A DNA stretch of 64,000 nucleotides from Gammaproteobacteria bacterium (GCA_050740695.1 JBOIDR010000002.1:3307-67306), one strand, 5' to 3'; shown: positions 19,402-39,197, numbered from the stretch's first letter. Program-made: numbers and translations. Notes: generated from the sequence alone by a model not told the origin.

Positions 19402-20295
19402 CTAGGCACGCGCGCGGCGCAGCCTGCTTCTCGCGGGCAGCTCGCTGTCGTAAATGCGCTTGACGCCGTCGCCGAGCGAGGTCTCGATGTCGCGGAGGTT
19501 GCGCACCAGGCGCTCGAAACCTCCGATCTCGACCGAGGCCGCCTGGTCGGTACCCCACGTGGCCCGATCGAGGGTGATATGGCGCTCGACGAAGGTGGCG
19601 CCCAGGGCCACCGCCGCGCCGCTCGGGGCGAGGCCGGTCTCGTGGCCGGAATACCCGATCGGGGTCTCGGGATAGGCGGCCTTCAGGGTCGGGATCATCT
19701 TGAGGTTCAGCTCTTCGAGCTTGCACGGGTAGGTAGAGGTCGAGTGCGCGATGAACAGTCCGGCCCGCCCCCCGGGACCGTGGAGACCGACGGTCTCGAC
19801 GGCCGTGCGGATCTCTTGCACCGTGGACATCCCGGTCGAGATCATGACCGGCCGCCCGGTCGCGCGTGCCTTGCGCAGTAAACGCAGATCCGTCAGTGAG
19901 GCGCTGGGGAGCTTGTAGAAAGGCGGCTCGAAACGCGCCATGAAGCCGATCGAGTCCTCGTCCCAACACGAGGCCGTCCAGTCGATCCCGAGATCGCAGC
20001 AGTAGCGGTCGATCTCCAGGTAATCCTCGACCCCGAGTTCAACGCGAAACCGGTAGTCGATGTAGCTCATCCGACCCCAGGGAGTGTCTCGCTCGACGCC
20101 CCACTGGTCCTTGGGCACGCATACCTCCGGATTGCGCTTCTGAAATTTCGCCATGTCGGCCCCGGCGCGCTTGGCGCCGGCGATGAGCGCCTTGGCGTGG
20201 GCGAGCGAGCCGTTATGGTTGATGCCGATCTCCGCGATAATGTAGACTGGCTCGCCGTCGCCTATTGCGCGTGCCCCGATATCCACGATTGCCAT
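19402..20295 (-). CDS. N-acetylneuraminate synthase (NeuB/SpsE) family protein. It has the TIM-barrel domain only, with no C-terminal SAF domain.
   Basis: MAIVDIGARAIGDGEPVYIIAEIGINHNGSLAHAKALI and ...GYSGHETG are NeuB-family motifs. Start at the internal Met. Confidence 0.7.
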   Translation of the reverse strand: MAIVDIGARAIGDGEPVYIIAEIGINHNGSLAHAKALIAGAKRAGADMAKFQKRNPEVCVPKDQWGVERDTPWGRMSYIDYRFRVELGVEDYLEIDRYCCDLGIDWTASCWDEDSIGFMARFEPPFYKLPSASLTDLRLLRKARATGRPVMISTGMSTVQEIRTAVETVGLHGPGGRAGLFIAHSTSTYPCKLEELNLKMIPTLKAAYPETPIGYSGHETGLAPSGAAVALGATFVERHITLDRATWGTDQAASVEIGGFERLVRNLRDIETSLGDGVKRIYDSELPARSRLRRARA

Positions 20296-20544
20296 GGTCC
20301 CCCTTTCTCGTCTCTTGCCTGTCGGACGCAAGCTATTCTTACAGCGGTCGCCAATCGCCCATTCTCGATCCCTAGCCCTCTCGCGGAGGCAAATGGGGCC
20401 TAAGGAGGCGATTCGTGGCCGTGCCTATCGTATGCCTTCAAATACGCCATGCCTGTGGCGCGGTTGGTGGGCGATGGCGCAGACAACGCCTCTAACCCCC
20501 AAACACAGGGATGCCCAGCCACCGCGGATGTTCGCACAGTCCTT

Positions 20545-21357
20545 TTACCAGATCGTGAACCCCCCGTCGACGATGAGGTTCGCGCCGCTCATATAGGCCG
20601 AGGCCTCGGAGGCCAGGAACACCAGCGCGCCTCGATAGTCCGTGGGCGCCGCCATGCGGCCGAGCGGCGTGCGGCGACCGTATTCCGCGACGAAGAAATC
20701 GTCCTGGCCGTTCTCGACCCCGCCGGGTGAAAGTGCATTGACGCGCACTCCACTAGCGCCCCAGTAGGCCGCGAGGAAGCGGGTGAAGGACAGCACCGCG
20801 CCCTTGCTGGTCGGGTAGGCGGGGGACTTGTAGAAACGCCGGCGGCCCTCGGGGTCGAGATAGAGCGATTGATCGGGGGCCACGACACCGTAGGTCGAGG
20901 CGATGTTGACGATGCTGCCGCGCCCGGTCTTGGCCATGTGCGTACCGATCACCTGTGAGGAGAGAAAGACCCCGGTCACGTTGACCTTGAGGACCTGTTC
21001 CCAGAGATCCAGCGGATAACGCTCGAAGCGCGACGATTCCAGCGCGGTGAACGGATCCTCGTAGCGGTCGTTCAGCGCCGCGTTGTTGACGAGCACGTCC
21101 ACCCTTCCTGTGATCGAGAGCACCGCCGCCAGCAGGATTTTGAGGGACTCGGGATCGCTCACGTCGGCCCGATGGCCGAAGGCACCGCCCCCGATCTCGG
21201 CGGCCAGGTGTTCGCACGCGGCGGCATCGAGGTCCGTCGCCACCACCCGGGCCCCTGCCTCCACCAGGGCGCGGCAGTGCTCGCGGCCCAGCAGACCGGT
21301 CGCGCCGGTCACGATCGCGGTCCGACCCTCTAACGAGAAGAGCTCCGTCGTGCTCAT
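20545..21357 (-). CDS. Short-chain dehydrogenase/reductase (SDR) family oxidoreductase.
   Basis: TAIVTGATGLLG (TGxxxGxG), NNAA and YxxxK-type motifs. The start ATG overlaps the upstream stop (ATGA). Confidence 0.8.
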   Translation of the reverse strand: MSTTELFSLEGRTAIVTGATGLLGREHCRALVEAGARVVATDLDAAACEHLAAEIGGGAFGHRADVSDPESLKILLAAVLSITGRVDVLVNNAALNDRYEDPFTALESSRFERYPLDLWEQVLKVNVTGVFLSSQVIGTHMAKTGRGSIVNIASTYGVVAPDQSLYLDPEGRRRFYKSPAYPTSKGAVLSFTRFLAAYWGASGVRVNALSPGGVENGQDDFFVAEYGRRTPLGRMAAPTDYRGALVFLASEASAYMSGANLIVDGGFTIW

Positions 21358-22718
21358 CACCCCTCCCGTGCCTCTGCCCGCGGCTTGGTATTGAGCCCGC
21401 CGGTCTTGCGGAACACCGGCTCGATCGGCGCCCCCTCGAGCGACTCCGAGACCCGCCCGGCATCGACCGCCTCTTCGAGGACGCCGAGCGCCTCGCCAAA
21501 GGCGGCGAGTGTGTAGTCGATGTCCTCTTGTGTATGGGAGTCGCAGAGGTTGTGGATGCCGGTCCACAAGACCCCGCGCCGGATCAGCTCCTGCTGGACC
21601 AGGGTCTTTAGGACCAGCGGATCACCGGCCCGGGTATCGTCCGCTGGGGTATCAAAACCGACCAGCGTCCGGAACGGATAGCCCGTGACCGAGACAAAAT
21701 CGAGCCCGAGCCTCCCGATGAGCCGTTGCAGGCCCTCCAGGAGCGACTGGCCGCGCAGGGCGATGCGCTCGATGACCCCGTGATCGCGGAGGTAGCGGAT
21801 GCAGGCGATCGAGGCGGCGAGCGACAGGGTCTCGCCGCCGAAGGTGGTGAAGAAAAACACATCTTTTTCCAGGAGCGACATCACGTCCCGTCGGCCGGTC
21901 ACGGCCGAGATCGGCATGCCGTTGGCCATGGCCTTGGAGAACAGCGACAGGTCCGAGCGCACCCCCAGGAACGCCTGGGCCCCGCCGAGGGCACAGCGGA
22001 AGCCCGTCCACATCTCGTCGAAGATGAGGAGCGCGCCGTTCCGATCGCAGAGCCGCCGCAGCTCCGCGAGAAAACCGCCTTGCTCGCGCTCGAAGGTGAA
22101 GGGCTCCAGGATCACGCAGGCGGTGTCGGTATCGAGCGCCGCGAGCACCGAATCGATGTCGTTGTAGCGGAAGGTGCCGGTCAGCTCGGCGGTCGCCACC
22201 GGGATGCCGGCGGCCCGATCGGTCACGGCGATGTACCAGTCGTGCCAGCCATGATAACCGCAGCACAGCACCCGCTCGCGCCCGGTGTAGGCGCGCGCCA
22301 ACCGCACCGCGGCGCTCGTCGCGTCGCAACCGGTCTTCGAAAAACGCACGGATTCGGCATGGGGCACGATCTCGCGCAGGAGCTCCGCCAGCTCGACCTC
22401 CAAGGGGTGCATGAGCGAGAAGGTGATCCCGTCTTCGAGCTGGCGGCGGATGGCCTCGTCCACCGCCGGGTGGCAGTAGCCCAGGATGATGGGACCGATG
22501 CCCATGTTGAAATCGAGAAACTCGTTGCCGTCCACGTCCCACACCCGCGCGCCGCGGCCGCGCGCGAGGTACTTGGGCGCTACGCCCCGAGAGAACTGCG
22601 TGGGTCCCTTGGCGAGGGTCTGGGTGCCCGCCGGGATGAGCCCCTGCGCCCGCGCCCAGAGGGCGTCCGAGCGCTCGATAGAAGGCAGTTCGGGGTTGGA
22701 TTGGACTCGGTTCGGCAT
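21357..22718 (-). CDS. Class III (PLP-dependent) aminotransferase, glutamate-1-semialdehyde aminomutase-like.
   Basis: Full-length match to the class III aminotransferase fold, including LIFDEMWTGFR and SKAMANGMPISAV (Schiff-base Lys region). Confidence 0.8.
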   Translation of the reverse strand: MPNRVQSNPELPSIERSDALWARAQGLIPAGTQTLAKGPTQFSRGVAPKYLARGRGARVWDVDGNEFLDFNMGIGPIILGYCHPAVDEAIRRQLEDGITFSLMHPLEVELAELLREIVPHAESVRFSKTGCDATSAAVRLARAYTGRERVLCCGYHGWHDWYIAVTDRAAGIPVATAELTGTFRYNDIDSVLAALDTDTACVILEPFTFEREQGGFLAELRRLCDRNGALLIFDEMWTGFRCALGGAQAFLGVRSDLSLFSKAMANGMPISAVTGRRDVMSLLEKDVFFFTTFGGETLSLAASIACIRYLRDHGVIERIALRGQSLLEGLQRLIGRLGLDFVSVTGYPFRTLVGFDTPADDTRAGDPLVLKTLVQQELIRRGVLWTGIHNLCDSHTQEDIDYTLAAFGEALGVLEEAVDAGRVSESLEGAPIEPVFRKTGGLNTKPRAEAREG

Positions 22719-22727
22719 GCGATCTCC

Positions 22728-23030
22728 TCAGAGACGTTCGAGCCGGGCCAGGACCTTGTGCGCCAAGGCCTCCGGCGTGTAGCCCTCATGCTCCAGGAGC
22801 GCCGGGTAGAGCGCCGGTTTGAACCAGCGGTCGGGGAGCGACAGGCACAGGGTCTCGGCCGTGACCCCCGCCTCGAGCAGGGTCTCGGCCAGGATACAGT
22901 ACAGGCCGCCGGTCTTAAAATGGTCCTCGACGACTACCAGAAGCCGGCAGGAACGGGCGACGGCGACGAGGCAATCCCGGTCCACCGGTTTCAAGGTCCG
23001 CAGGTTCACGAGCCCGACCGACAGGTGCCG
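22728..23030 (-). pseudogene. Truncated 3' part of a transketolase C-terminal-subunit gene, covering about 80 of 302 aa. The intact paralog is at 30767..31675.
   Basis: Residues LVNLRTLKPVDRD...LERL match the intact copy. Similarity is lost upstream of about 23030. Confidence 0.6.
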
Positions 23031-23534
23031 CGTGAGGGGGCACCTCAACCTGGTCCGCTGAGGGGGGTATTGGCGTTGACCGGCACGTTCGGAGTGATGT
23101 CGGGACGTAGCCTGGCGCTGCATCCTCGGCGCGCCAAGCATGCCCTTCCTTGGGCCTGGCTCCGGGCGCGAGCACGTCATGAAATATTACTCAAGCCGAG
23201 TATACTTTCATAGCTGATCCAAACGAGCTAGGCCAAGCGTTCGGAAACAATTATGAGAAATTTAGTATTAGACAAGATAAGAAAGCGTTCCAACTCTATG
23301 ACGATGGTTGGCGGCTAGCGTGGTAAGCTCTCTAAGTGAAATATTAGACGAGATAAATGCCTCTCTCATGACAGCCAGCGAACGCTGTGGCCGTTACCGT
23401 GCTGCACGGATCAGGGGACAATACACCCTTTTCTGCTATCGGGGCAAATAGGGGGCAAACAATGAGATCGGCTCTAACCATTGCTATGCTTGTTGCTTCG
23501 TTCATTCACGGATGTGCCATGGAGCGCACGGCGA

Positions 23535-23830
23535 ATAGGGATTTTAAACGTCCTTTTTATAAAGAAGCAGAGTACTGCTCGGCTTCGTGAGCTGTCAAGC
23601 ATACGGGTCCGCGGCCTCGGATCGGGCCCTTCCTCGGCCCGAGGCGCTATGTTTCGGGGCGTTTTGGGGTCTCGGGCGAGCGAGGGCCAAGAGGAAGCTC
23701 AGGGGCTGAGCCGGATGGGAGGGGGGTCGGTGGGGGATCAGACCTGTTGGAATCGATCGAAGGCCCTGGCCGCTGCTCGGGGCGGTGCTCGGGCGGACAT
23801 GCCAAGATGCTTGAGGATCTTGGCTCGCGG
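23535..23830. repeat. Copy A of an approximately 290-bp repeat. It carries the 3' tail of an IS91-family transposase remnant.
   Basis: Near-identical to 29113..29395, with a few indels and substitutions. Confidence 0.7.
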
Positions 23831-23835
23831 CACGC
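23738..23835 (-). pseudogene. IS91/ISCR-family transposase extreme C-terminal remnant (...KILKHLGMSARAPPRAAARAFDRFQQV).
   Basis: It matches the tail of the longer remnant at 29313..29495. Confidence 0.5.
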
Positions 23836-23922
23836 CTTCAGCACTTCCTCGTGCGCGGCGGTCTGATGTCGCATAGTCAACCTCCTCGTTAACGTGCCAG
23901 TCGCTGTGGTGCAGGAATGAAC

Positions 23923-24621
23923 TCAGCGGCTGCCAGTGCCTAGGTCGTCGGAATGCCCGGCCTTCAGGCGAGACCACTGGGCGGTGGGGCGTCCATCGGT
24001 ACGGTAATGCTGCTTGCCTTTCCACCTTTGCGGCCAGCCGGTCGGCGAGTCCTCCCATGTCTCCTGCCGCCCGTAGACCGTCAGGTCGAGCAAAGCGTAG
24101 CTGTTGTCCATCGCCTCAACGCCGCGCGTCGTCGTCCAGTAAGTCTCGAAGACACTGGATCCTTGTCGCAGGTAGCAAACGATGTGCATCATGCCCACCC
24201 GGCGTCCAACCAAGAGAGTGTCGAGCGAGTCCTGGGCCGAGTACCAAGGCATCTCCCAGCCCATGAAATCGCGGTACCGGACGCTCTCTTCGTAAGGGCC
24301 CTGGCAGAATGTGGCGTAAGTGACGTCACGGGAATGCAGGTAGGACAGCTCGCGGACCTGCGACGTATAGAAGGTGCAACCCTCACACTGCTCTGCTGCC
24401 GGGTGGCCCGTGTGCCACATGAAGTAGTAGGCGATTAGCAGCCGGCGCCCCTCAAACGCCTCCAACAGCGTCACCACGCCACGCTCGCCGATAAGTGGTG
24501 TCGCACTATTCATTTCGACCATGGGCAGCCGCCGGCGGGCGGCTGCAATCGCGTCGCCTTCTCGTGTGTGAGCTTTCTCTCGAACCCGCAGTGCGTCCAG
24601 CTCGGCCTGGAAAGTGCCCCG
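23923..24621 (-). CDS. DUF899 thioredoxin-like protein. It lacks its own start codon and is fused in-frame to a transposase remnant upstream.
   Basis: RRRLPMVEM...LLIAYYFMWHTGH...CEGCTFY...HSRDVTYATFC...FMGWEMPWYSA fits the DUF899 pattern, including the CxxC motif. Confidence 0.5.
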   Translation of the reverse strand, partial: RGTFQAELDALRVREKAHTREGDAIAAARRRLPMVEMNSATPLIGERGVVTLLEAFEGRRLLIAYYFMWHTGHPAAEQCEGCTFYTSQVRELSYLHSRDVTYATFCQGPYEESVRYRDFMGWEMPWYSAQDSLDTLLVGRRVGMMHIVCYLRQGSSVFETYWTTTRGVEAMDNSYALLDLTVYGRQETWEDSPTGWPQRWKGKQHYRTDGRPTAQWSRLKAGHSDDLGTGSR

Positions 24622-24729
24622 ATCAATCACGGTGGGATCTACGATGGCGGCGATGATCGTCAAGGGGCCACCGCACTGGGGGCAGTGCTCGATGTCGATC
24701 TCGAACACTCGTTTGAGCAGCCGGGCCCA
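24622..24729 (-). pseudogene. IS91/ISCR-family transposase zinc-finger segment remnant (WARLLKRVFEIDIEHCPQCGGPLTIIAAIVDPTVID).
   Basis: The same peptide is contiguous with the ILKHLG tail in copy B at 29313..29495. Here it is separated from the tail by the DUF899 segment. Confidence 0.5.
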
Positions 24730-24781
24730 GCTTATGGGGGCAGGCGCCGCGGGAGGGCGCACCTCAGCATAGTCCGCTGAG

Positions 24782-25463
24782 TTGGGCCTGGGCCTGGCCG
24801 CCGTCGTTGGGATGACGGCCACGCACGCGGGAGCGTCGGGTGCAGCCACTCCGGACGATGGCCACCGACAGTTCTCCAAGGCCGAAACCCTGCTGTGGCA
24901 GACCGACCACCTGGCCAATGTGCGCCGCCCGAGCACGCTCCGCTATCGCTATACCAAGACCGGGACGGCGGAGGAGCAGCATACCGACGTCATCGATCTG
25001 GAGGTGCTGCGCGTCCACGCCGACGGCCAGAAGGGCGTCCAGGTCCACTAATTCACCGGCAAGCAGGAGCGGCCCGTCCCCGAGCAGGACCTGGTCACCG
25101 GCAACCCGGTCCTCGCGGTGTACCTGCAGGGCGCTGTCTACGCGATGAACCGCCGCCCCGAAGGGGGTTGGCGCTACTTCCACCGGGCCATCAAGACGGC
25201 GCTCGCGGCGACCAATACGGTAGAGTCCATCGGCCTCGATTTTCGTGACCGGAAGGTCCCGGCGAGCCGGGTCACCATCACCCCCTATCTCGGCGATGCC
25301 AAGCGCCTACCGCTCAAGGCCTATGCCCAGACGACCTATGCCTTCACCTTCGCCGATGGCGGTCCCGGGCCAGCTCTATGAGATCCGATCGCTCGTGCCC
25401 CAGCCCGATGGGGCGCCCCTCATCGAAGAGGCCCTGACCTTCGTCGAGTCCAAGGATCGGTAA
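24782..25463 (+). pseudogene. Hypothetical gene broken by frameshifts and a stop.
   Basis: Three consecutive ORFs in different frames (24782..25051, 25118..25381, about 25245..25463) read as one continuous polypeptide. Confidence 0.3.
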
Positions 25464-25536
25464 AGGTACCCCCCCCGACCATGGCCCGAGAGACCATCCC
25501 AGCCGCATGGCTGTTGTTGCCCCTGCGGCTCGCGCG

Positions 25537-27483
25537 TTACCGGCTAAACAGCACAAAGCCATTGGCCGGAATCGTGATCTCCGCAGAGGCAGGCATGTTA
25601 TCCCAGGCAACGCCCTCGGCCCAAATGCTGCCACCGTTGCCGGCCACCGACGGGTTTGGCAACTGATCATAATAATCGCTATTAAAGATCTCACGCCAGG
25701 GGCCGCCGCCCGGAAAGCCGACGCGATGCCCGTAGCGGTTAAACTCCTGGAGATTGCCCACCAGGAGCACGTCGTGTCCAGCTCCCTCGATCCAGCGATG
25801 CACAACGATCACTCGGTCGAGGCTCTCGGCGCGGGACACGCGTAGCGATTCACCACGCAGGCCAGAAAACGAGCGGCGCAGCCAGATCAGGTCGCTCAGA
25901 AAGTGCAGATAATCCTGCCGCACCTTGTCAGTCGCGAGTGCCTCCCACTCGATGAGCAGGTCTGGACGGAACCCGACGGCGTCGCTCCACTGTTTGTCTT
26001 CGAGGAATTCCTGGCCCATGAAGAGCATGGGCATGCCACATGACACCAGCAGCAGCCCGGCGGCAAAGCGGGCACGGCTTCTGGCGTACCAGGAGCGCGG
26101 GGCTGATCCGTCCGCTAGGCGGGCCAGACGCGGGCCATTGCCATCGTAGACAATGTCGTGATTCTCCAGGCAGTTCACCACCTTCCACGCCGCTGAGAAC
26201 CCAGGAGGCGTATCCAGGCCGGACGCCAGGGCCGACATATCGATATAGGAGTTCTGTCCGCCGCTGGCCTGCCCAATGGTCTGGCGCACAGCATCACGCA
26301 ACCTGTCGCCCCAGGCGGCGTCAAAGCCCAGGCCTTGCGGCATCACACGCACCGCCGCGGCCCGATCACTGGCCCAGTACTCGGCGATCTGGATCGCCTG
26401 CGGTTTGCGAAAGCGCACCGTGCCGGTGAGGTCCTGGCAAAACCGACCACCACCATGCGTGTCGATCACGGTCACCTCGTCGTAACGAATGCCGTCGATG
26501 TGGTACTCATCGAGCGAGAACGTCGCGTTGTCGATGAGGAACTGCCGCACATCCTGGTTCCAATAGGCAAAGATGAGTCCGCCCACCCAGCCTTGATCGG
26601 TGAAGTACAGACTGCGGTTTTCATCGCCAGAAGGCTGGCGGTCGAAAAATCGCAGGGAGCGGGCGTCCCAGCCACCGCCGGCATGGTTGTATACAAGGTC
26701 GAACAACACGGCGATGCCATATACGTGCAGGATATCGATCACACACTTGAGCTGATTGGGACCGGGTTCGAGCTGGCTCGCCGTGATCGGCGCGTGGCCC
26801 TGCGCCGCGAGCAGGGTATTGGCCTGCGCCAGGTAGCGTTGCAGCTCCTGCGGCTGCTCGACCTGATAGTCCATCTCGGGCGAGAAAAGGTCCAGGCCGT
26901 TGTAGCCACGGCTCGTTTCAGTCGGGAACTCTTGGATGGGCAGCAACTGGATCGCATTGATACCCAGAGTACGGAAGTACTCGACGCGGTCGAGGATATC
27001 GAGGAACTTGGCGATGGCGCGCCGCTTATCCCGGCCCGCGGCATCAACGCCGTAAAAGACCCCCACGTGCAACTGATACATGATGAGGTCGTTGAAGGCC
27101 GGCGTCCGGAAGCCCGCGTCGTGCCAAGGATACGTGGTTGGAGAGCGCACCAGGCAGTCCGAATCGGGAAATCCCGGCGTCAGTTCGCGGGCGCGCGGAT
27201 CACGTTTGAGGCCGGTACTGCCGGTCCCCACGATCCAGAACAGATAGGGTGTGCCTTCGGTTGCACCCGGAACAAAGCCGCCCCACGTCCCATCGCCCAG
27301 GGTAAACAGCGCATCGTCGGCAGCGGGCACAAAGCCAGGTTGGCGCGCCGCGGTCAGCGCTGAACCCGTGAGCACAAACACCTGCTGTGCCTGTGGCGCC
27401 CAGGTCCGAAAGGCCACGCCGTCGGGGAGCAGCGTCGCTCCCAGCGGCGTATTGCGATCGATGTGCGTGCGTATCGTTGGCAT
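25537..27483 (-). CDS. Glycoside hydrolase family 13 (alpha-amylase superfamily) enzyme with an N-terminal CBM48-like domain. It is branching-enzyme-like or debranching/trehalohydrolase-like.
   Basis: GH13 catalytic regions are GIRYDEV (nucleophile Asp), EYWA (acid/base Glu) and ENHD. N-terminal FRTWAPQAQQVFV is CBM48-like. Confidence 0.7.
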   Translation of the reverse strand: MPTIRTHIDRNTPLGATLLPDGVAFRTWAPQAQQVFVLTGSALTAARQPGFVPAADDALFTLGDGTWGGFVPGATEGTPYLFWIVGTGSTGLKRDPRARELTPGFPDSDCLVRSPTTYPWHDAGFRTPAFNDLIMYQLHVGVFYGVDAAGRDKRRAIAKFLDILDRVEYFRTLGINAIQLLPIQEFPTETSRGYNGLDLFSPEMDYQVEQPQELQRYLAQANTLLAAQGHAPITASQLEPGPNQLKCVIDILHVYGIAVLFDLVYNHAGGGWDARSLRFFDRQPSGDENRSLYFTDQGWVGGLIFAYWNQDVRQFLIDNATFSLDEYHIDGIRYDEVTVIDTHGGGRFCQDLTGTVRFRKPQAIQIAEYWASDRAAAVRVMPQGLGFDAAWGDRLRDAVRQTIGQASGGQNSYIDMSALASGLDTPPGFSAAWKVVNCLENHDIVYDGNGPRLARLADGSAPRSWYARSRARFAAGLLLVSCGMPMLFMGQEFLEDKQWSDAVGFRPDLLIEWEALATDKVRQDYLHFLSDLIWLRRSFSGLRGESLRVSRAESLDRVIVVHRWIEGAGHDVLLVGNLQEFNRYGHRVGFPGGGPWREIFNSDYYDQLPNPSVAGNGGSIWAEGVAWDNMPASAEITIPANGFVLFSR

Positions 27484-27848
27484 CGTTCGTTGCTCCTGGG
27501 TCTCAGTCGTAGCCGCCGAACATGAACAGCGTCATCTCCATGTCGGTCGGATTGATCAAGCCATGCAGGTTCCCGCCTTTGAGCATCGCCAGGTGCCCGG
27601 ACGTCATGGGTGGGACAGGGTGAAGGCCTGAACCTTCCACAAAGAAGAGCCGCGCTTATCTCAGCATGGGGCGTTGCCGGTGACCACTGGAAGTCCGTGT
27701 TGGCGGTAGGTTGTCGGAACCAGCTTTGAAGCGGAAAGATTCATCTTGCTGCTTTAAACCTCGAAGGAAACGCCCCGTGCGGACCCGCATGCGGGGTGTT
27801 GTGGGGGCTGGGGGTTAAACACGGCCCGAACTACCCCATTAGCCATTT

Positions 27849-28592
27849 TCACGACAAGAAATGGTGCACGACTAAGAGTAATAATCCACTGCAGTAGAAA
27901 ATGATATTTAGACCATACAACTCGATACTGTCGGCAAGCTGCGAAAACCCACCCACTCCACAGCTCACGGGGATTTCTCGGACATGCTTAGTTTTTGAAT
28001 AGAAAAATGTGTCTGATTCGCGAAGTGTTAATTCTACGAGAGCTATGGACCACTTACTACCAATAAGCCAGTTCCAGACGAGAAGATATATTGAAATAAG
28101 GCAGTAGGAGATAAAAGAACCAATCGGCTTGATAGAAAAAGGGACGCACGCAACTACCAGAGTTGCACCAAATAGGTAATAGAGCCATGTAGTCGGATCT
28201 TTCGCGCTCATCAAATAAATCAGCGATCCTTCGCTAATCGGATGACGCCTCATTAGTCCGCGAAACAGCAAGGGCCCGGCCAGCGTAAGCTCGTCAAACA
28301 ATGACCTGCATTCTTGTAAGGATTGCTTTTCCCTAAAAGCGAAAAGGGAATTAACAAAATGCTCGGCGCAGAACTTGTGCGCAATAGTCATGATCAGAAC
28401 TGCTATCCAAGCTTGCGCCGTTGAAAGCTCTACGTCGCCTACTTTGAACGTGGACTTTCCAGTCAGTTTCAACGCCACGATTGTCAGGGTTAGGGTTGCA
28501 AAAAAGATAAGCACCTTGCCAAGAAGTTCTGCATTACTTGAAGCCGCTGCCTTCAGAACGTCGTCCTTCTTATCGATTTTTTTCTGCGGCAT
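27849..28592 (-). CDS. Low-GC polytopic membrane protein of unknown function.
   Basis: GC is about 40-45% against a 67% background. Four or five hydrophobic helices. No recognisable motif. Confidence 0.5.
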   Translation of the reverse strand: MPQKKIDKKDDVLKAAASSNAELLGKVLIFFATLTLTIVALKLTGKSTFKVGDVELSTAQAWIAVLIMTIAHKFCAEHFVNSLFAFREKQSLQECRSLFDELTLAGPLLFRGLMRRHPISEGSLIYLMSAKDPTTWLYYLFGATLVVACVPFSIKPIGSFISYCLISIYLLVWNWLIGSKWSIALVELTLRESDTFFYSKTKHVREIPVSCGVGGFSQLADSIELYGLNIIFYCSGLLLLVVHHFLS

Positions 28593-28705
28593 ATGGTCAC
28601 TTGGACTGGTCAGTGGAAATAGATCTGGGAGTTGGTCTTATCGGGCAGTATGGTCCTGAAGCGGAAAAGAGTCAAGGAGCCGGATGGACGCAAGGCCGTC
28701 TGCGG

Positions 28706-29062
28706 CTACTTCTCGCGACGTCGCCGGAGCGGAGAAACGGAACGGTTCATCGTGTACCTCATAAAAGCCGGGCTCCTGCCCGTTCGGTTCAGGCCGCCCA
28801 TCGGAAGAACGGAGGCCGGTAGCCCGAGGGAGAGGCGGAAGCGTTTGACAGGGCGCAGCCTTCCTTGAGCGCAGTGCGGGCAGCGTTTGGGGTGGGTTCC
28901 GAGGATCCGAACGAGGAACGCTTCGACGGTTTCCGGTTCGCGCGGTGCGGGAATGGAGACATCGAGGGCGAGCCGACAGGAGTGTCGGATCCGCATGAAG
29001 CCCTTGGGGAGCAAGTGGAGCAGAAATCGACGGATAAACTCCTCGACCGGGAGGCGCATCAC
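28706..29062 (-). mobile_element. IS91-family (HUH Y2) transposase fragment covering the C-terminal approximately 115 aa only.
   Basis: FIRRFLLHLLPKGFMRIRH...KRCPHCAQG matches the conserved C-terminal region of IS91-family transposases. The N-terminal catalytic part is absent. It abuts the repeat at 29113. Confidence 0.5.
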
Positions 29063-29112
29063 CTTCCCTTTTTTGCGATGAGCGTAGTCCCGCCAACGGA
29101 AACGGAGCGAAT

Positions 29113-29395
29113 AGGGATTTTAAACGTCCTTTTTATAAGAAGCAGAGTACTGCTCGGCTTCGTGAGCTGTCAAGCATACGGGTCCGCGGCCTCGGATCGG
29201 GCCCTTCCTTCGGCCCGAGGCGCTATGTTTCGGGACGTTTTGGGGTCTCGGGCGAGCGAGGGCCAAGAGGAGCTCAGGGGCTGAGCCGGATGAGAGGGGG
29301 GTCGGTGGGGGATCAGGCCTGTTGGAATCGATCGAAGGCCCTGGCCGCTGCTCGGGCGGACATGCCAAGATGCTTGAGGATCTTGGCAATCACGG
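29113..29395. repeat. Copy B of the approximately 290-bp repeat (see 23535..23830).
   Basis: Direct sequence comparison. Confidence 0.7.
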
Positions 29396-29495
29396 TGGGA
29401 TCTACGATGGCGGCGATGATCGTCAAGGGGCCACCGCACTGGGGGCAGTGCTCGATGTCGATCTCGAACACTCGTTTGAGCAGCCGGGCCCAGTG
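29313..29495 (-). pseudogene. IS91/ISCR-family transposase C-terminal remnant, with the zinc finger and tail contiguous.
   Basis: WARLLKRVFEIDIEHCPQCGGPLTIIAAIVDPTVIAKILKHLGMSARAAARAFDRFQQA. Confidence 0.5.
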
Positions 29496-29664
29496 TCGCT
29501 CTTCCCAGAAGGCTGTCAGTATTGATAGTAGCATGCGGTTGCCGCCTGAGGCAATGGCACTGCACGTGGCCATTGGTGCAGTCAGACTTCCCGTGCTTAG
29601 CCCAGCCTGCAGGGGACTTGTAGAAACGCCGGCGGCCCTCGCGGTCGAGATAGAGCGATTGATC

Positions 29665-30757
29665 CGGGGCCGGGTATCGCCCGCTGGGGTATCAAAACCG
29701 ACCAGCGTCCGGAACAGATAGCCCGTGACCGAGACAAAATCGAGCCCGAGCCTCCCGATGAGCCGTTGCAGGCCCTCCAGGAGCGACTGGCCGCGCAGGG
29801 CGATGCGCTCGATGACCCCGTGATCGCGAAGGTGCCGGATGCAGGCGATCGAGGCGGCGAGCGACAGGGTCTCGCCCCCGAAGGTGGTAAAAAAAACACG
29901 TCCTTTTCGAGGAGCGACATCACGTCCCGTCGCCCGGTCACGGCCGAGATCGGCATGCCGTTGGCCATGGCCTTGGAGAACAGCGACAGGTCCGAGCGTA
30001 CCCCCAGGAACGCCTGGGCCCCGCCGAGGGCAGAGCGGAAACCGGTCCACATCTCGTCGAAGATGAGAAGCGCGCCGTCGCGATCGCAGAGCCGCCGCAG
30101 CTCCGCGAGAAAACCGTTCTGCTCGCGCTCGAAGGTGAAGGGCTCCAGGATCACGCAGGCGGTGTCTGTATCGAGCGCCGAGAGCACCGAATCGATGTCG
30201 TTGTAGCGGAAGGTGGCGGTCAGCTCGGCGGTCGCGGCCGGGATGCCGGCGGCCCGATCGGTCACGGCGATGTACCAGTCGTGCCAGCCATGATAACCGC
30301 AGCACAGCACCCGCTCGCGCCCGGTGTAGGCGCGCGCCAGTCGCACCGCGGCGCTCGTCGCGTCGCAGCCGGTCTTCGAAAAACGCACGGATTCGGCATG
30401 GGGAACGACCTCGCGCAAGAGCTCCGCGAGCTCGACCTCCAGGGGGTGCATGAGCGAGAAGGTGATCGCGTCTTCGAGCTGGCGGCGGATGGCCTCGTCC
30501 ACCACCGGGTGGCAATAGCCCAGGATGATGGGACCGATGCCCATGTTGAAATCGAGGAACTCGTTGCCATCCACGTCCCACACCCGCGCGCCGCTACCGC
30601 GCGCGAGGTACTTGGGCGCCACGCCCCGGGAGAACTGCGTGGGTCCCTTGGCGAGCGTCTGGGTGCCCGCCGGGACGAGTCCTTGCGCCCGCGCCCAGAG
30701 AGCGTCCGAGCGCTCGATGCAGGGCAGTTGGGGGTTGGATTGGACTCGGTTCGGCAT
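29665..30757 (-). pseudogene. Second, diverged copy of the class III aminotransferase gene. It has one frameshift in an A8 homopolymer near 29890 and is 3'-truncated.
   Basis: About 93% identity to 21625..22718. The frame switches after ...LLEKDVFF. Similarity ends at GFDTPAGDTRP. It is followed by a 60-bp piece identical to the SDR gene's 3' region (20822..20885). Confidence 0.65.
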
Positions 30758-30766
30758 GCGCTCTCC

Positions 30767-31675
30767 TCAGAGACGTTCGAGCCGGGCCAGGACCTTGCGC
30801 GCCAAGGCCTCCGGCGTGTAGCCCTCGTGCGCCAGGAGCGCCGGGTAGAGCGCCGGTTTGAACCAGCGGTCGGGGAGCGACAGGCACAGTGTTTCGGCCG
30901 TGACCCCGGCCTCGAGGAGGGTCTCGGCCAGGATGGAGTACAGGCCGCCGGTCTTGAAGTGGTCCTCGACGACCACCAGAAGCCGGCAGCAATGGGCCAG
31001 GCCGACGAGGAGATCCCGGTCCACCGGCTTCAAGGTGCGGAGGTTCACGAGCCCGACCGACAGGCCGTTTTTTCGCAAGCGCTCGGCCGCCTGGTGACAC
31101 TCCGAGAACAGCACCCCATAGGCCAAGAACGTCGCGTCCCGGCCCTCGGCCAGCACCTCGGCACGGCCGGGGGCGAAGTCGGGGGTGTGGGTGACCACCG
31201 GGCCCTGGGCGTTATAGCGGATGTAATACGGTGCGGGATCGAGGAGCACCGTATCGAGCCCGATCAGCAAATCGTCGAGGTCCGCGGGACAGAAGACCTT
31301 CATGTTGGGGATGCCGCGCATGAGCGCCACGTCTTCGATGGCTTGATGGGTCGGGCCGTTGGCCTCCGAGACGAAGCCCGGGAAGCTCCCCACAAGCTTG
31401 ACGGGCAGGCACGGGATACCGACATCGGTGCGGATGAACTCGAAGGCCCGGAGCGTCAGGAAGGCCGCGAGCGCGTGGATGACCGGGATGCGGCCGCGCA
31501 GCGCCAGTCCCGCCGCCATTCCGACCATGGTTTGCTCGGCGATCCCGACATCGATGAAGCGCGCTCCCAGCCGCTCGGGCAGTGTCCGGATCGCGGCCCG
31601 GTTCTCGGCCGTCATGGCGATGAGCCGCTCGTCCTGTTTGGCGAGACGGTAAAGGGCGTCTTCGTAACTTGTCAA
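30767..31675 (-). CDS. Transketolase C-terminal subunit of a split transketolase.
   Basis: A 302-aa match to the transketolase pyrimidine-binding/C-terminal section (IAEQTMVGMAAGLALRG...). Confidence 0.8.
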   Translation of the reverse strand: MTSYEDALYRLAKQDERLIAMTAENRAAIRTLPERLGARFIDVGIAEQTMVGMAAGLALRGRIPVIHALAAFLTLRAFEFIRTDVGIPCLPVKLVGSFPGFVSEANGPTHQAIEDVALMRGIPNMKVFCPADLDDLLIGLDTVLLDPAPYYIRYNAQGPVVTHTPDFAPGRAEVLAEGRDATFLAYGVLFSECHQAAERLRKNGLSVGLVNLRTLKPVDRDLLVGLAHCCRLLVVVEDHFKTGGLYSILAETLLEAGVTAETLCLSLPDRWFKPALYPALLAHEGYTPEALARKVLARLERL

Positions 31676-31761
31676 CTACCGTTTCCCTTTGGGCTATTGG
31701 AGTCTGCTCGGGCTTACCCGCAGCCGAGCAACTTGGGCCGCAGGCTTTCGTTGACCCGTAT

Positions 31762-32469
31762 CTATTTAGCTTTCGCTTCTACTATATGATCGAATGCTGT
31801 TTTGTAGATTATTATTCTACCAAACACGTCGGAGCTTAACCCGAAGTCTTCGACACGTATCTCCTGGTCCTGCGCCGGATCCCAGAAATCGACGACTATG
31901 AGCAGCCAATAAGCATCACAATTAGTATACTCTTTAACCTTGTTCTCTTTAGTCCTTATGATATCCGACAGCCTTTGAATGGACATCATAGGTACAGTGT
32001 AGACATTATAAGCCCTCCACTTGGGATCGCTATACAGTTTTGTATTCACATATAGGTAGTCCAGTTCAGGGAGGTCCTTGTATACGTGTCTGAATACCGT
32101 ACCTGCATCCAACGCCTCAACCCGTTTTGCCAATTCAACGAGTTTCTTCACAAACTTATTCGTTTGTCCGATCGGCTTTTCCAAATTGAACCCAACAGAT
32201 ATCTCGATCGGCTTTCCCCCTTGATCCACGAACTGTCGTTGCGCTTCTTGCAGAACGTCTTGTCGAATTTTGTCTTGCTTCTGCTCGTTGTCCGCGATCG
32301 CTCCATCCTGCAAAAAGAACCGGGTTACTTCTATGCCGATTTTTCTTTGCCCTTCGATTATCACATCCGGCTTGTCGCCATGCTTGACCTCTCCCTCCGG
32401 AAGGGCATACGCTCCGCGGAATCGTTCGAAGTAGTATCGTTCAATTTCTTGATTGGACATTGACCTCAA
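31762..32469 (-). CDS. Low-GC hypothetical protein (235 aa) inserted between the two transketolase subunit genes. Possibly nuclease-like.
   Basis: GC is about 42%. N-terminal GDKPDVIIEGQRKIGIEVTRF is reminiscent of a PD-(D/E)xK core (weak). No other match. Confidence 0.45.
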   Translation of the reverse strand: MRSMSNQEIERYYFERFRGAYALPEGEVKHGDKPDVIIEGQRKIGIEVTRFFLQDGAIADNEQKQDKIRQDVLQEAQRQFVDQGGKPIEISVGFNLEKPIGQTNKFVKKLVELAKRVEALDAGTVFRHVYKDLPELDYLYVNTKLYSDPKWRAYNVYTVPMMSIQRLSDIIRTKENKVKEYTNCDAYWLLIVVDFWDPAQDQEIRVEDFGLSSDVFGRIIIYKTAFDHIVEAKAK

Positions 32470-32534
32470 TCCTGTCGAGCTAAAGCGAACTTGATGTTCG
32501 ACGGACCCGTGGACTCATTCCTGAAAATAGCACG

Positions 32535-33392
32535 CTACCGCGCGACGATGGTCTCGCTCGCGAGCACGGCCTCACGGGTCCCCTCCAGTTCCTCCAAAAG
32601 CATCTCGACCTCCCCGGAGGTGAAGTTGCAGAACCAACGGTCGGCGCGGGCCGTCAGGCTCGGCAGGCCCTGGCCGCGCACGGTGTCCGCGATGACGGCG
32701 CTTGGCCGGCCCAGGGCGATCGGGATGCGCGCCAGGCCGCGTTCGATAGAATCGAAGTCATGACCGTCGATGCGCAAGGCCGCCCAGCCGAAGGCATGGA
32801 ACTTCTCTTCGAGGGGTTCGAGCGGGATTAGGTCCTCGGTCGCGACGTTGGCCTGAAAGCCGTTGCGGTCTACGATGCAAACGAGGTGGTCCATCCCCTT
32901 GGCGGCCGCGACCAGGGCCGCCTCCCACACCGATCCCTCGTTCAGCTCCCCGTCGCCGAGGACCACCACCACGCGGTTCGGGCCGCCGCAAAGCCTCACG
33001 TCGAGCGCGATGCCGAGGCCCACCGAAAGCAGGTGGCCGAGCGAGCCGGAATGGAACTCTACGCCCGGAATATTACGGTTCGGATGCCAGTAGATGTCGT
33101 CGCCGGGCGCGAGGTGTCGTGCGAGGCGTGCGGGATCGAGGACCCCAAGCTCGGCTAATAGCCCGTACAACGCGGGGACATCGTGTCCCTTGGAGAGCAA
33201 GAGGTAATCACGCTCGGGGTCCTCTAGCCGCGCCGCATCGAATCTGAGCCAGCGGGCATAGAGATACGTCAAGAGATCCACGCACGACAGCGAGGCCCCG
33301 ATGAAACAACCCCCGCGGGTCGCCATGCGGACGATATGGCCGCGCACGCGATGGGCGAGCGCTTGGAGATCTTTTTCGTCCTCTGGAGTCAT
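32535..33392 (-). CDS. Transketolase N-terminal (TPP-binding) subunit.
   Basis: MTPEDEKDLQALAHRVRGHIVRMATRGGCFIGASLSCVDLLTYLY...LSKGHDVPALY is typical of the split transketolase N subunit. Confidence 0.8.
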   Translation of the reverse strand: MTPEDEKDLQALAHRVRGHIVRMATRGGCFIGASLSCVDLLTYLYARWLRFDAARLEDPERDYLLLSKGHDVPALYGLLAELGVLDPARLARHLAPGDDIYWHPNRNIPGVEFHSGSLGHLLSVGLGIALDVRLCGGPNRVVVVLGDGELNEGSVWEAALVAAAKGMDHLVCIVDRNGFQANVATEDLIPLEPLEEKFHAFGWAALRIDGHDFDSIERGLARIPIALGRPSAVIADTVRGQGLPSLTARADRWFCNFTSGEVEMLLEELEGTREAVLASETIVAR

Positions 33393-34240
33393 AGGGACGG
33401 GACGGCGCGCGTCTCCGCCGCGCCGATGGTGCGGAGCCGATGCAGGTGATGGCGATACCAGTTGACACCGGCGTACTTCGCATTGATCGCCGCAAGCCCC
33501 GGGCGGCGGTCCAAGAGGTCCAGGATGTCGTAGAGACCGAAGGCGGGATCGGCGGGATACAGGGCCTCGTACACCCGCCGGATGAATTCATAGTCCTCGG
33601 GATAGTCGATGGTCCAGCGGTGCGACATCGAATAGTTCCTGCCGGGGCGGCCGTCGGTCCGCTCCTCCCACGCGACGTTACTCAACGGGAAACACAAGGG
33701 CCGCTCCCAGATGAAGGGCGTCGTGTGCTCGCGCTCGAAATCCAACCGGGCCTCGCGAAAGGCGCATTCCAAGACCTCGACCGACATGAGCTCGGCGTCG
33801 TTGCCATCCGGGAAAGAGGCGGGGTGCAGGTTGCTCGTGTAATCGCTGTCTCCTTCCGCGAAGCGTGCGAAGACCGCGTCAATGACCGCCGGATCGACGA
33901 GCGGGCAGTCGGATGGCACCTTGGCGAGCACCTCCGCGCCGTAGCGGCGCGCGACCTTGAGGTGACGGTCGAGGAGATCGGTCGGGTGCCCCCGAAAGAC
34001 CTCGATCCCTGCCGCCCGGCACACCGAGACGAGCCCATCGTCGGCGGGATCGGTCGTCGTGGCCACCACGATCCGCCCCGGGGTCTTCATGCGCGCCACG
34101 CGCTCGACCATGCGCACGATGAGCGGTTCGCCGGCGAGGTCCATCAAGACCTTGCCCGGCAGGCGGGTCGAGCCCAGCCGTGCCTGCACGACCACGAGTG
34201 ATTCAGCCCCGCTCACGGGCCCCCCTCCCTCCCCTGCCAT
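33389..34240 (-). CDS. Acylneuraminate cytidylyltransferase family protein (SpsF/CMP-sugar synthetase-like).
   Basis: VVVQARLGSTRLPGKVL...VVATTTD is the cytidylyltransferase N-terminal signature. Its stop overlaps the tktN start (ATGA). Confidence 0.75.
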   Translation of the reverse strand: MAGEGGGPVSGAESLVVVQARLGSTRLPGKVLMDLAGEPLIVRMVERVARMKTPGRIVVATTTDPADDGLVSVCRAAGIEVFRGHPTDLLDRHLKVARRYGAEVLAKVPSDCPLVDPAVIDAVFARFAEGDSDYTSNLHPASFPDGNDAELMSVEVLECAFREARLDFEREHTTPFIWERPLCFPLSNVAWEERTDGRPGRNYSMSHRWTIDYPEDYEFIRRVYEALYPADPAFGLYDILDLLDRRPGLAAINAKYAGVNWYRHHLHRLRTIGAAETRAVPSL

Positions 34241-34443: not shown

Positions 34444-35856
34444 ATGCAAACGTCTCGGGTGTGGATCTGGCAACAATCTGATTGGCCGCCGATGAAGATC
34501 AAAGGGTTCCGCTGGGATCAAGGGGCGCTGGCCCCTTGGCTTTCGCGTGCGCGGCTGGCTCAGGGCAAGGTGCTGGGTGCCACACAGTGGCTCGATCCCA
34601 ACCTGACGTTGGAAGCCGTGGCCGTCATCCTGGTCGAGGATGGGGTTACAACGAGCGCGATCGAGGGCGACCTGTTGGATCTGGACGCGGTTCGGTCGTC
34701 GGTTGCTCGCCATCTCGGCTTGCCTACCGCCGGTCTGCCCGCACCACCGCGCGCCGTTGATGGCTTGATTTCAATATGAAGGGTTCAAACCCCCGCCTTT
34801 CAGGCGGGCAGATTTCATCTGCAGCCATGAGCGGGCATGGTAGCATAGTCTGATTGAAGAAGGGGATCCGATGGACGGCAGCCATACGGTAGTCAAGATT
34901 GAATGCCACTTTGTCTGGGTAACGAAGTATCGCTACCAAATCCTGAAGGGAGAGGTGGAGCCGTAGACGCGTCGTTCAGTCGACGCGTATCCGGACTTTC
35001 AGTCCGTAACTCAAACCCACCGGCTTTTAGCCGGTGGTTGTTTAGTGAGGTGCTGCTCGATGCCACCCGTGACCTCGGTTCGCCCCTGACCGCTAAGCGC
35101 CTCTGCGGCTGGCAGGCATCCCTGTTCCCCACAGGCTACTCGGGTCTGCACCAGATCCGAACCGGCGCACTACGGGGTGATGAGCCGATGCAGGTCATCT
35201 CCGGGCGCATCGGCCATGAGCGCGTTCATTTCACCGCACCACCGCGTGAGGGGCTGGACCTGGAACTGGATCGCTTTCTGGCGTGGTTCAATGCATCCCC
35301 GACCGATTTGGATGGACTGATCCGCGCAGGTCTCGCGCACCTGTGGTTCGTGACGCTTCACCCTTTTGAAGACGGCAACGGCCGACTGGCCCGCGCCATC
35401 ACCGACAGAGCCTTGTCGCAGGACGAGCACCGGCCGATGCGGTTTTTCAGCCTGTCTGCACAGATCCTGCGCGAGCGAGAGGGCTACTACAACATCCTCG
35501 AACACACTCAAGGTGGCAGCGTCGATGTCACGGACTGGCTGGCGTGGTTCCTGGTGCAAGTCGAGGCCTCGGCCACGGCGGCGGAAAAGACTGTCGACAC
35601 CACGCTGGCAAAGGCGAGATTCTGGCTGCGTCACCAGGCTGCGGATCTCAACGAGCGCCAGCGCAAGGTGCTCAACCGGCTGCTCGACGCAGGCCGGGAC
35701 GGCTTCGAAGGCGGGATCAACACCCGCAAGTACATGAGCCTGACCAAGACCAGTCGCGCCACAGCCTACCGTGAGATCGCTCTACTGATCGAGAAGGGCT
35801 GCCTCACGCCGACCGGCAAGGGCGGACGGAGTAGCGGCTACGAGATCGTTTGGTGA
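34444..35856 (+). pseudogene. Fic/Doc-family (AMPylation) gene, split by an approximately 260-bp insertion.
   Basis: The N part (34444..34779) has the TSAIEG motif. The C part (about 35040..35856) has the Fic motif HPFEDGNGRLAR. The two parts are in different frames, separated by the inserted element. Confidence 0.6.
34785..35045. mobile_element. IS200/IS605-derived miniature element. It carries a TnpA N-terminal remnant and is flanked by similar hairpins.
   Basis: An internal ORF encodes MDGSHTVVKIECHFVWVTKYRYQILKGEV, the HUH Y1 TnpA N-terminus. Flanking hairpins are TCAAACCCCCGCC-TTTCA-GGCGGG and TCAAACCCACCGGC-TTTTA-GCCGGTGG. Confidence 0.5.
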
Positions 35857-38831: not shown

Positions 38832-39197
38832 TCAATCCGGCAGGCCCGCGATCTCTATCACCGGCCGGATCTCGACGGTCCCCTTGCGCGCCATGGGGAT
38901 CCGTGCGGCGATGCCGATCGCCTCGTCGAGATCCCGAGCGTCGATCAGGAAGTAGCCGCCCAGTTGCTCGCGCGTCTCGGCGAACAGACCGTCGGTCACG
39001 AACCGTTTACCGCCCCGCACCCGGACGCTGGTCGCCGTCGATGTCGGGTGCAACGGGTTGGCGGCCAGGTACTGCCCGCTCGCTTTCATCTCTTGTGCGA
39101 GCCGCGTGGACTCCACGTAACACTCTTCCCGTTCGGTCTCGCTCAACGCCAGCTCGTCTAGGTAAATCAACAACATGTATTTCATGTGTGCCTCCAA
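38832..39197 (-). CDS. YciI-like (DGPF domain) protein.
   Basis: MKYMLLIY...GGYFLIDARDLDEAIGIAARIP is the YciI family pattern. Confidence 0.6.
   Translation of the reverse strand: MEAHMKYMLLIYLDELALSETEREECYVESTRLAQEMKASGQYLAANPLHPTSTATSVRVRGGKRFVTDGLFAETREQLGGYFLIDARDLDEAIGIAARIPMARKGTVEIRPVIEIAGLPD

Follow-up and report, generated by a model that had tools for sequence, protein, structure and literature searches.

A predicted sugar-acid operon of an uncultured environmental gammaproteobacterium is interrupted by a mosaic of mobile-element remnants and cargo genes, and the two partial operon copies that bracket this mosaic appear to descend from two related lineages. The locus spans positions 19402-34240 of a 64,000-nt stretch of DNA (Gammaproteobacteria bacterium, GCA_050740695.1 JBOIDR010000002.1:3307-67306; organism GC content 65%), the whole of which is referred to here as the window. 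The operon encodes a cytidylyltransferase (cyt), the two subunits of a split transketolase (tktN and tktC), a class III aminotransferase (AT), an SDR oxidoreductase and a NeuB-family synthase without the SAF domain, all on the minus strand. With moderate confidence, the present arrangement can be ascribed to a single homologous crossover by which a circle associated with ISCR-type elements, and carrying a fragment of the same operon, entered the resident copy.

Architecture of the split operon

A self-comparison of the window by gapped BLASTN, followed by base-level alignment, revealed the direct repeats that the first-pass annotation had led one to look for. The longest, block B, forms the core of the homologous segment H and pairs 21627-23025 on the left with 29667-31064 on the right over 1,399 nt at 94.5% identity (76 mismatches, 1 gap), while the 63-nt block A (20819-20881) recurs directly within SDR as A' (29609-29671) at 95% identity. 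Two further repeats lie in the DNA between the copies, namely block C (23531-23824 on the left, 29107-29387 on the right; ~294 nt, 94% identity) and block D (24624-24730 and 29387-29493; 107 nt, 100% identity). The repeat period is 8,040 bp, and the non-operon DNA measures 6,583 bp (23026-29608), less than the roughly 8.5 kb estimated at first pass.

Neither half of the operon is complete, in agreement with the initial description. The right copy of H comprises the 3' 298 nt of tktC and the 5' 1,092 nt of the aminotransferase gene. The latter is frameshifted by a 1-bp deletion in an A8/T8 run (~29891-29899; left equivalent 21852), and a 745-bp internal deletion (left equivalent 20882-21626) joins it, with a 5-nt overlap, to the 63-nt SDR fragment; in the right-copy open reading frame (ORF) at 29597-30757, the Aminotran_3 match stops at residue 283. 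This copy ends within SDR at 29609 and is thereby 3'-truncated, and the left copy begins within tktC at 23025, where homology with the right copy ends, and is thereby 5'-truncated. Read along the operon, the order is thus upstream genes, the copy truncated in SDR, 115 bp, an ISCR end with its oriIS, cargo, a second ISCR end, an AT-rich spacer, a transposase linker fragment, the copy truncated in tktC and the downstream genes.

The same arrangement is present in a second public record, GCA_975254505.1, with two differences over 14,137 nt. Both (22064 and 22099) fall in the left aminotransferase gene, and at each of them the right copy carries the base of the window. In addition, a Logan short-read contig (SRR27067773) is 100% identical to 34791-30860, the right-copy allele, and ends within 58 nt that do not differ between the copies, which is where a de Bruijn assembly would be expected to break if the reads hold both copies.

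An ancestrally contiguous operon

A search with the aminotransferase retrieved 80 loci in species-representative genomes from many phyla, which were compared by tblastn with all proteins of the window. In nearly all of them, cyt-tktN-tktC-AT-SDR-NeuB forms one contiguous cluster (some Ignavibacteria loci are without transketolase), and the insert genes occur in none of the 80. The operon is distributed across Bacteroidota, Ignavibacteriota, Chloroflexota, Acidobacteriota, Nitrospirota, Myxococcota and Gammaproteobacteria. Three closer relatives were obtained from a large protein collection and their contigs compared with the window. Specifically, L097 (~91-94% identical) carries nitroreductase, cyt, tktN, a low-GC segment, tktC, AT, SDR and NeuB without interruption, collinear with the window and free of the insert; L098 (~85% identical) has a fully intact cluster in which tktN adjoins tktC; and L099 (~94-95% identical) has a single, decaying cluster. 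Broken genes are also found in L097 and L099, which may reflect decay or long-read consensus error. The single contiguous operon in the 80 loci and in all three relatives shows that the operon was ancestrally undivided and that its disruption in the window is lineage-specific. This gene order bears out the earlier suggestion that the two halves make up one coherent operon, and each relative has one cluster rather than two independent complete ones. A scan of JGI metagenome contigs with a 30-mer common to both copies returned chance matches only (a conserved motif, distant aminotransferases) and no close relatives.

The cluster also varies among its carriers. In most relatives (for example L003, L013 and L027), a gene for a HAD enzyme of the KdsC/KDN-9-phosphate phosphatase type stands between SDR and NeuB (TIGR01670, 123-156 bits against a cut-off of 106.95); it was not found in the window, L097, L098 or L099. 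An OlsE-like fatty-acid hydroxylase gene follows NeuB in L003 and L013. The closest species-representative genomes, L001 and L002 (75% identity; metagenome-assembled genomes (MAGs) from Chromatiales and Gammaproteobacteria), have cyt-tktN-tktC-AT without SDR or NeuB, preceded by a conserved 315-aa ORF without family, with ECH and HMGL-like genes further upstream in L002; these loci are a different variant of the cluster.

Two alleles from different lineages

At 5.5% divergence, left and right fall short of near-identity. Within H, they share 94.5% identity, compared with 95.6% between left and L099, 95.3% between right and L099, and 96.0% between L097 and L099. Polarising the 77 left/right differences with the three relatives assigns 39 derived changes to the left copy and 37 to the right, and sites of the two kinds are interspersed. 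Among the lineage-specific changes in the aminotransferase, synonymous ones outnumber non-synonymous ones by 11 to 6 in the left copy and by 16 to 6 in the right; overall, 33 synonymous changes stand against ~20 non-synonymous ones (dN/dS near 0.2). Mostly synonymous change on both branches indicates that both copies were long functional, although each now holds a dead gene fragment, and that they evolved as working genes under purifying selection for nearly all of their separate history. The right copy acquired its 745-bp deletion and its frameshift late.

The duplication within this genome that the first-pass annotation had envisaged is at odds with these figures. The simplest reading is instead that left and right represent alleles of two lineages ~5% apart that were recently combined, one of them having been imported, since each copy is at least as similar to orthologues elsewhere as to its counterpart, and both diverged under purifying selection.

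ISCR remnants and cargo in the insert

The foreign mosaic noticed at first pass, with IS91-family remnants, a GH13 gene, a DUF899 gene and a low-GC hydrophobic ORF, was recovered by the domain searches (Pfam and NCBIfam, together with PADLOC). It is built round four IS91/ISCR transposase fragments, all in operon orientation (Table 1). The right remnant is an uninterrupted transposase C-terminus from 29493 to 29316 (WARLLKRVFEIDIEHCPQCGG...AKILKHLGMSARAAARAFDRFQQA, then the stop codon), from which ~210 bp lead to an oriIS-type terminus at 29107. The left remnant consists of linker and C-terminus (24858-24624), a 799-bp DUF899 segment (23825-24623), and the rest of the C-terminus (23824-23744) with an oriIS-type terminus to 23531. 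Blocks C and C' share the end ...AAAAAGGACGTTTAAAATCCCTATTCGC (23531, 29107), ~210 bp past the transposase stop, and different DNA follows each. These ends are oriIS-type termini, since in ISCR2, compared between two plasmid contexts, conservation 3' of the transposase runs out at ...AAAAGGGCGTTTATTCTTCCTATACG, about as far past the stop; the terminus of the ISCR lineage in the insert is ...CCCTATTCGC. The Y2 fragment lies ~38 nt past the right terminus. The diverged linker fragment stops ~10 nt before the start point of block D' and is fused straight to the truncated tktC through CAGG microhomology (junction J1).

The DUF899 gene is without its own first codons and is fused in frame to the transposase remnant, resulting in a 337-aa chimeric ORF (23923-24936, minus strand) that the gene caller of the sister record starts at 24762 (279 aa). 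That DUF899 was merely deleted from the right ISCR copy can be rejected: the right transposase C-terminus is continuous, so the DUF899 segment is an insertion. Its entry point is the foot of a perfect 9-bp-stem hairpin, TGCCAAGAT(N8)ATCTTGGCA (29355-29425; 23790-23830 / 24620-24650). In L107 (3355-3577), opposite-orientation fragments of the same transposase region meet at the same breakpoint, which suggests that this breakpoint is recurrent.

Coverage of the transposase is restricted to model positions 411-500 of 509 and 262-306 of 356, and the 5' parts are missing in all ISCR copies. The 120 best homologues of the C-terminus (P0241-P0360) are all 57-145 aa long and include no full-length transposase; one of them lies elsewhere in the same MAG, on a different contig. 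Copies reduced to the 3' end may thus be common in this ISCR lineage, a suggestion tempered by the shortness of many of the contigs.

The cargo between the two ISCR ends also includes unassigned DNA. Its low-GC hydrophobic 247-aa ORF received no family assignment from PADLOC, Pfam or NCBIfam, and the exact GH13 protein was found only in records of this organism. When the low-GC ORF, the GH13 protein and the two ORFs that span the junctions were looked up as exact proteins, only the organism's own records were returned, and no independent short-read contig across the junctions. The plus-strand ORF fragment in the AT-rich spacer (23280-23327) has a counterpart 32 kb away at 55901-55948, the two being 92-95% identical over 41-48 nt and both encoding the C-terminus '...KAFQLYDDGWR(L/V)A'.

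Origin of the split

The data are compatible with a model in which ~8.8 kb of incoming DNA recombined into the ancestrally contiguous operon. This DNA would have comprised a 2.2-kb operon fragment (tktC 3' end, aminotransferase and the 5' part of SDR) from a lineage ~5% diverged, and 6.6 kb of IS91/ISCR-derived ends with cargo (GH13, DUF899 and the low-GC membrane ORF). Fragment and mosaic would have travelled on a circular molecule of rolling-circle origin, and a single crossover between circle and resident operon within the 2.2-kb homologous fragment would yield the observed gene order. Subsequently, the upstream copy would have lost 745 bp by microhomology deletion and gained its 1-bp frameshift. 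It is topology that would argue for the circle, the operon fragment lying between near-complementary pieces of the ISCR transposase gene.

Several observations weigh against this model. Junction J1 is an illegitimate-recombination joint, not a joint of oriIS to terminus, and the 115 bp at the other junction (29494-29608) are unaccounted for. No crossover point is visible among the polarised sites of H, and the resident allele is indistinguishable from the imported one. Moreover, the window contains no intact transposase, tblastn finding nothing more of it in the 64 kb, so mobility is not attributable to any element within it. Neither the exact-protein look-ups nor the JGI contig scan uncovered a donor context for cargo or alleles, and the data are metagenome assemblies throughout. 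As for the source of J1, simple rolling-circle closure from either oriIS was considered and rejected, the joint not being one of oriIS to target.

The strongest competitor, which is unlikely but deserves serious weight, is insertion by illegitimate or one-ended recombination. In that case, everything left of 29609 (the mosaic plus tktC'-AT-SDR-NeuB, and perhaps more) would have been imported, and the resident SDR 3' end and NeuB replaced. Both operon/insert junctions are indeed non-homologous, with at most 4-5 nt of microhomology; NeuB is ~90% identical to its relatives, against 94-96% for H, while the L097 and L099 NeuB genes are 98.3% alike; and the SDR-NeuB spacer and downstream flank find no match in L097 or L099. 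However, such an insertion would also require replacement or deletion of the resident 3' genes, whereas the single crossover is one event. The 10% divergence of NeuB from L097, furthermore, lies within the resident range (9.5% for the 5' part of tktC, 8.9% for nitroreductase), and the downstream flank, with LptM, decarboxylase and two-component genes, looks core chromosomal.

It is improbable that the structure is an assembly chimera, with halves from two co-occurring strains ~5% apart joined through shared insert sequence. Both novel junctions must still exist in real molecules, and each strain would need a different half-operon cut by the same mosaic at a different point, so that one genome is the more parsimonious solution. 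The metagenomic assembly of both records and the 94.5% identity, typical for co-existing related populations, would suit a chimera, as would the break of the Logan contig within the repeat and the location there of both single-nucleotide differences between the records; yet two records agree on the same 14-kb structure with only those two differences, a divergence of 5.5% suffices for assemblers to separate the copies, and the insert has coherent internal repeats of its own. Finally, an old tandem duplication in this genome, followed by insertion-sequence insertions and divergence in place, is highly improbable: it would explain the direct orientation and overlapping extent of the two partial copies, but these are not each other's closest relatives, they show mostly synonymous change on both branches though each is now partly a pseudogene, and the single-copy L097, L098 and L099 would demand repeated losses. 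The single crossover with an ISCR-associated circle thus remains the preferred account.

Table 1. Features of the operon and its insert, listed from the start of the operon (positions in the window)
Feature	Position	Strand	Evidence and remarks
Cytidylyltransferase (CTP_transf_3; SpsF/KdsB-like)	33389-34240	minus	First operon gene, intact; Pfam PF02348, 101 bits
tktN (transketolase N-terminal subunit)	32535-33392	minus	Intact, 285 aa; PF00456 (Transketolase_N); 285 aa in L098 too
Low-GC ORF	31762-32469	minus	235 aa, ~47% GC; between tktN and tktC
tktC (transketolase C-terminal subunit)	30767-31675	minus	Only intact copy, 302 aa; PF02779 + PF02780 (Transket_pyr + Transketolase_C)
115-bp segment between SDR fragment and ISCR remnant	29494-29608		Source not apparent; no similarity in window or relatives
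Right ISCR 3' end	29107-29493	minus	NF052416 ISCR clade Ia, E 1.2e-10; tblastn
IS91-family Y2 transposase fragment (…EEFIRRFLLHLLPKGFMRIRH…)	28967-29068	minus	NF033538, E 3.3e-12; PF04986 (Y2_Tnp), E 2.5e-10
Low-GC hydrophobic ORF	27849-28592	minus	Cargo, 247 aa, ~46% GC
GH13-type glycoside hydrolase, CBM48, C-terminal beta domain	25537-27483	minus	Cargo, 648 aa, intact; Pfam
Left ISCR 3' end, interrupted	23531-24858	minus	NF052416, E 1.6e-10, and PF05988, E 7e-48, on one ORF
AT-rich spacer	23098-23530		~54% GC; includes part of a small plus-strand ORF, the 3' end of which is repeated at 55901-55948
Diverged ISCR transposase linker fragment (…PIPPSADQVEVPPHAA)	23026-23097	minus	Alignment score 48 vs maximum 31 in 500 shuffles; blastn-short 85% over 41 nt
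Left tktC remnant	22728-23025	minus	3' 298 nt only, pseudogene; PF02780 partial
Class III aminotransferase (GSA-aminomutase-like; GSA, glutamate-1-semialdehyde)	21357-22718	minus	Only full-length copy, 453 aa; PF00202, PRK06209-like, 388 bits
SDR oxidoreductase	20545-21357	minus	Only full-length copy, 270 aa; PF13561 + PF00106 (adh_short)
NeuB-family synthase without SAF	19402-20331	minus	Last operon gene; likely 297 aa (19402-20295); PF03102, 233 bits

The predicted pathway and its state in the window

Pfam and NCBIfam agree with the initial gene calls for all six enzymes. The cytidylyltransferase probably starts at 34216 (275 aa, the length also called in the sister record and in L097) and falls below the equivalog cut-offs for KdsB (63 vs 193) and PseF (23 vs 205.7); its nearest solved structure is 6oew, a KdsB-like enzyme entitled 'cytidylyltransferase'. 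The NeuB-like synthase likewise stays below its equivalog cut-offs (TIGR03569, 228 vs 399.65; TIGR03586, 173 vs 340.25), with SpsE (1vli) and PseI (8h2c) as nearest structures. SAF is missing throughout its family (297-298 aa in relatives), hence its absence is no local truncation. The left aminotransferase is 93% identical to P0001, which also has 453 aa, and its nearest structures are glutamate-1-semialdehyde aminomutases; like the other two enzymes, it attains no equivalog cut-off. The exact tktC protein is found in GCA_975254505.1.

The predicted product of the operon is a 3-deoxy-2-ulosonic (sialic/Kdo-like) amino acid sugar activated with cytidine monophosphate (CMP). With nab (Neu/Leg/Pse) and Kdo/KDN clusters the operon shares a NeuB-family synthase that condenses phosphoenolpyruvate (PEP) and a CTP_transf_3 cytidylyltransferase, and with Kdo/KDN clusters most of its relatives also share the KdsC/KDN-9-phosphate phosphatase-type HAD enzyme. 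Unlike nab clusters, it has a split transketolase, a GSA-aminomutase-like class III aminotransferase, an SDR and a SAF-less synthase, and neither the window operon nor the conserved operon of its relatives contains a UDP-N-acetylglucosamine (UDP-GlcNAc) 2-epimerase/hydrolase, 4,6-dehydratase, DegT aminotransferase or acetyltransferase. The phosphatase gene in most relatives suggests that the synthase makes a phosphorylated ulosonate. A possible route would begin with transketolase building a ketose phosphate, which the class III aminotransferase and SDR would convert to a 2-amino-2-deoxy-aldose phosphate. The SAF-less NeuB would then condense this amino-aldose phosphate with PEP, a KdsC-like phosphatase (in most relatives) would take off the phosphate, and the cytidylyltransferase would activate the product with CMP.

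A full-text literature search found no published account of the combination cyt-tktN-tktC-AT-SDR-(KdsC)-NeuB. With regard to the mobile DNA, the 3'-end-only ISCR modules and the recurrent hairpin breakpoint could represent prematurely terminated rolling-circle copies that still capture and shuffle host genes. Two ideas, namely that the operon follows a hitherto undescribed route, starting from something other than UDP-GlcNAc, to a CMP-activated 5-amino-3,5-dideoxy-ulosonic (neuraminic-acid-like) sugar and, separately, that 3'-end-only ISCR modules shuffle host genes, form a tentative proposal that is rather doubtful.

All six enzymes keep one intact ORF in the window, with AT-SDR-NeuB lying 6.6 kb away from the start of the operon. 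A scan of 22600-24000 for sigma-70 and terminator consensus sequences found no minus-strand promoter-like site upstream of AT-SDR-NeuB, a weak test at 65% GC. In the sister record GCA_975254505.1, 22064 C>A turns Glu219 of the only full-length aminotransferase into a stop codon, so no intact aminotransferase exists there; this stop codon also explains why an exact-protein look-up of the left aminotransferase gave no match. Function in trans, as suggested at first pass, is possible from the ORFs present, and the pathway may be decaying in this lineage.

Additional genes in and around the operon

A second low-GC ORF, of 235 aa and unrelated to that of the insert, lies at 31762-32469 and had been absent from the first-pass annotation. 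It has no Pfam, NCBIfam or PADLOC match and belongs to a widespread family of 171 homologues, every one 'hypothetical'. It is missing from the 80 syntenic loci and from L098 and present in L097; as such, it is no part of the canonical operon and was inserted between tktN and tktC. The same junction holds an HbpS-like gene in L099, a 2.2-kb gap in L004 and nothing in L098. Another foreign gene in L099 and none in L098 make this junction look like an insertion hot spot.

Downstream of the operon, the flank includes LptM, diaminopimelate/ornithine decarboxylase and two-component genes; ORFs downstream of NeuB received no assignment from PADLOC, Pfam or NCBIfam. Just upstream of the operon, on the plus strand, DUF4172 and Fic domains are encoded on separate adjoining ORFs (34444-34779 and 34903-35856), which are probably one split Fic gene; in PADLOC, the ORF with the Fic domain is hit by the SoFic model (E 1.7e-34). 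Beyond the split operon, 38862-38996 and 39290-39424 form a 135-nt direct repeat (~70% identity, 428 nt apart).

Comparison with known ISCR systems

The properties of ISCR elements have been described (PMC3575428; PMC5714925). In complex class 1 integrons with ISCR1, a truncated 3'-conserved segment (3'-CS) comes first, and between it and a further 3'-CS copy lie ISCR1 and then a variable region (PMC3575428). This architecture has been put down to aberrant rolling-circle replication, which would give rise to a circular intermediate that integrates by homologous recombination (PMC7707992; PMC5714925). The window shows the same order of 3'-truncated copy, ISCR 3' end with oriIS, cargo and 5'-truncated copy; complex integrons may also hold more than one ISCR copy, and the origin proposed for them, circle plus homologous recombination, is the one proposed here. 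In contrast to these integrons, the window is without integron, 3'-CS or resistance genes, and a search of the ORFs from 15.8 to 37.8 kb turned up no integrase or 3'-CS genes (intI1, attI, qacEdelta1-sul1 platform). What is duplicated here belongs to a sugar-acid operon in the chromosome of an environmental gammaproteobacterium, the ISCR copies survive just as 3' remnants, and the two duplicates are 5.5% diverged, whereas the duplicates of ISCR1 complex integrons are near-identical.

Compared with ISCR2, the transposase C-terminus of the window is 50-62% identical (62% over 42 aa), and the oriIS-like terminus shares its skeleton with that of ISCR2 and lies about equally far beyond the stop codon. 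A Y2_Tnp fragment and no inverted repeats accord with IS91/ISCR elements of the HUH-Y2 type. Unlike ISCR2 and IS91, however, the window is without an intact transposase or an identifiable terIS, and one copy has a DUF899 segment at the hairpin foot inside the transposase coding region. The event is thus of a known kind, an ISCR-type rearrangement, in an unusual place.

The split operon offers a worked example of the arrangement 'truncated copy - ISCR - cargo - truncated copy' outside clinical resistance plasmids, here in the chromosome of a gammaproteobacterium that is environmental and uncultured. Because the bracketing copies differ by 5.5%, they keep a record of donor and recipient that is lost in the near-identical duplications of clinical integrons. 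For annotation, the locus carries a warning, in that half-operons beside IS91 debris represent neither two loci nor an intact pathway. Taken together, these findings point to such elements shuffling ordinary metabolic operons between related lineages, and highlight the conserved operon cyt-tktN-tktC-AT-SDR-(KdsC)-NeuB as the subject of greater novelty and more lasting interest than the local rearrangement itself.

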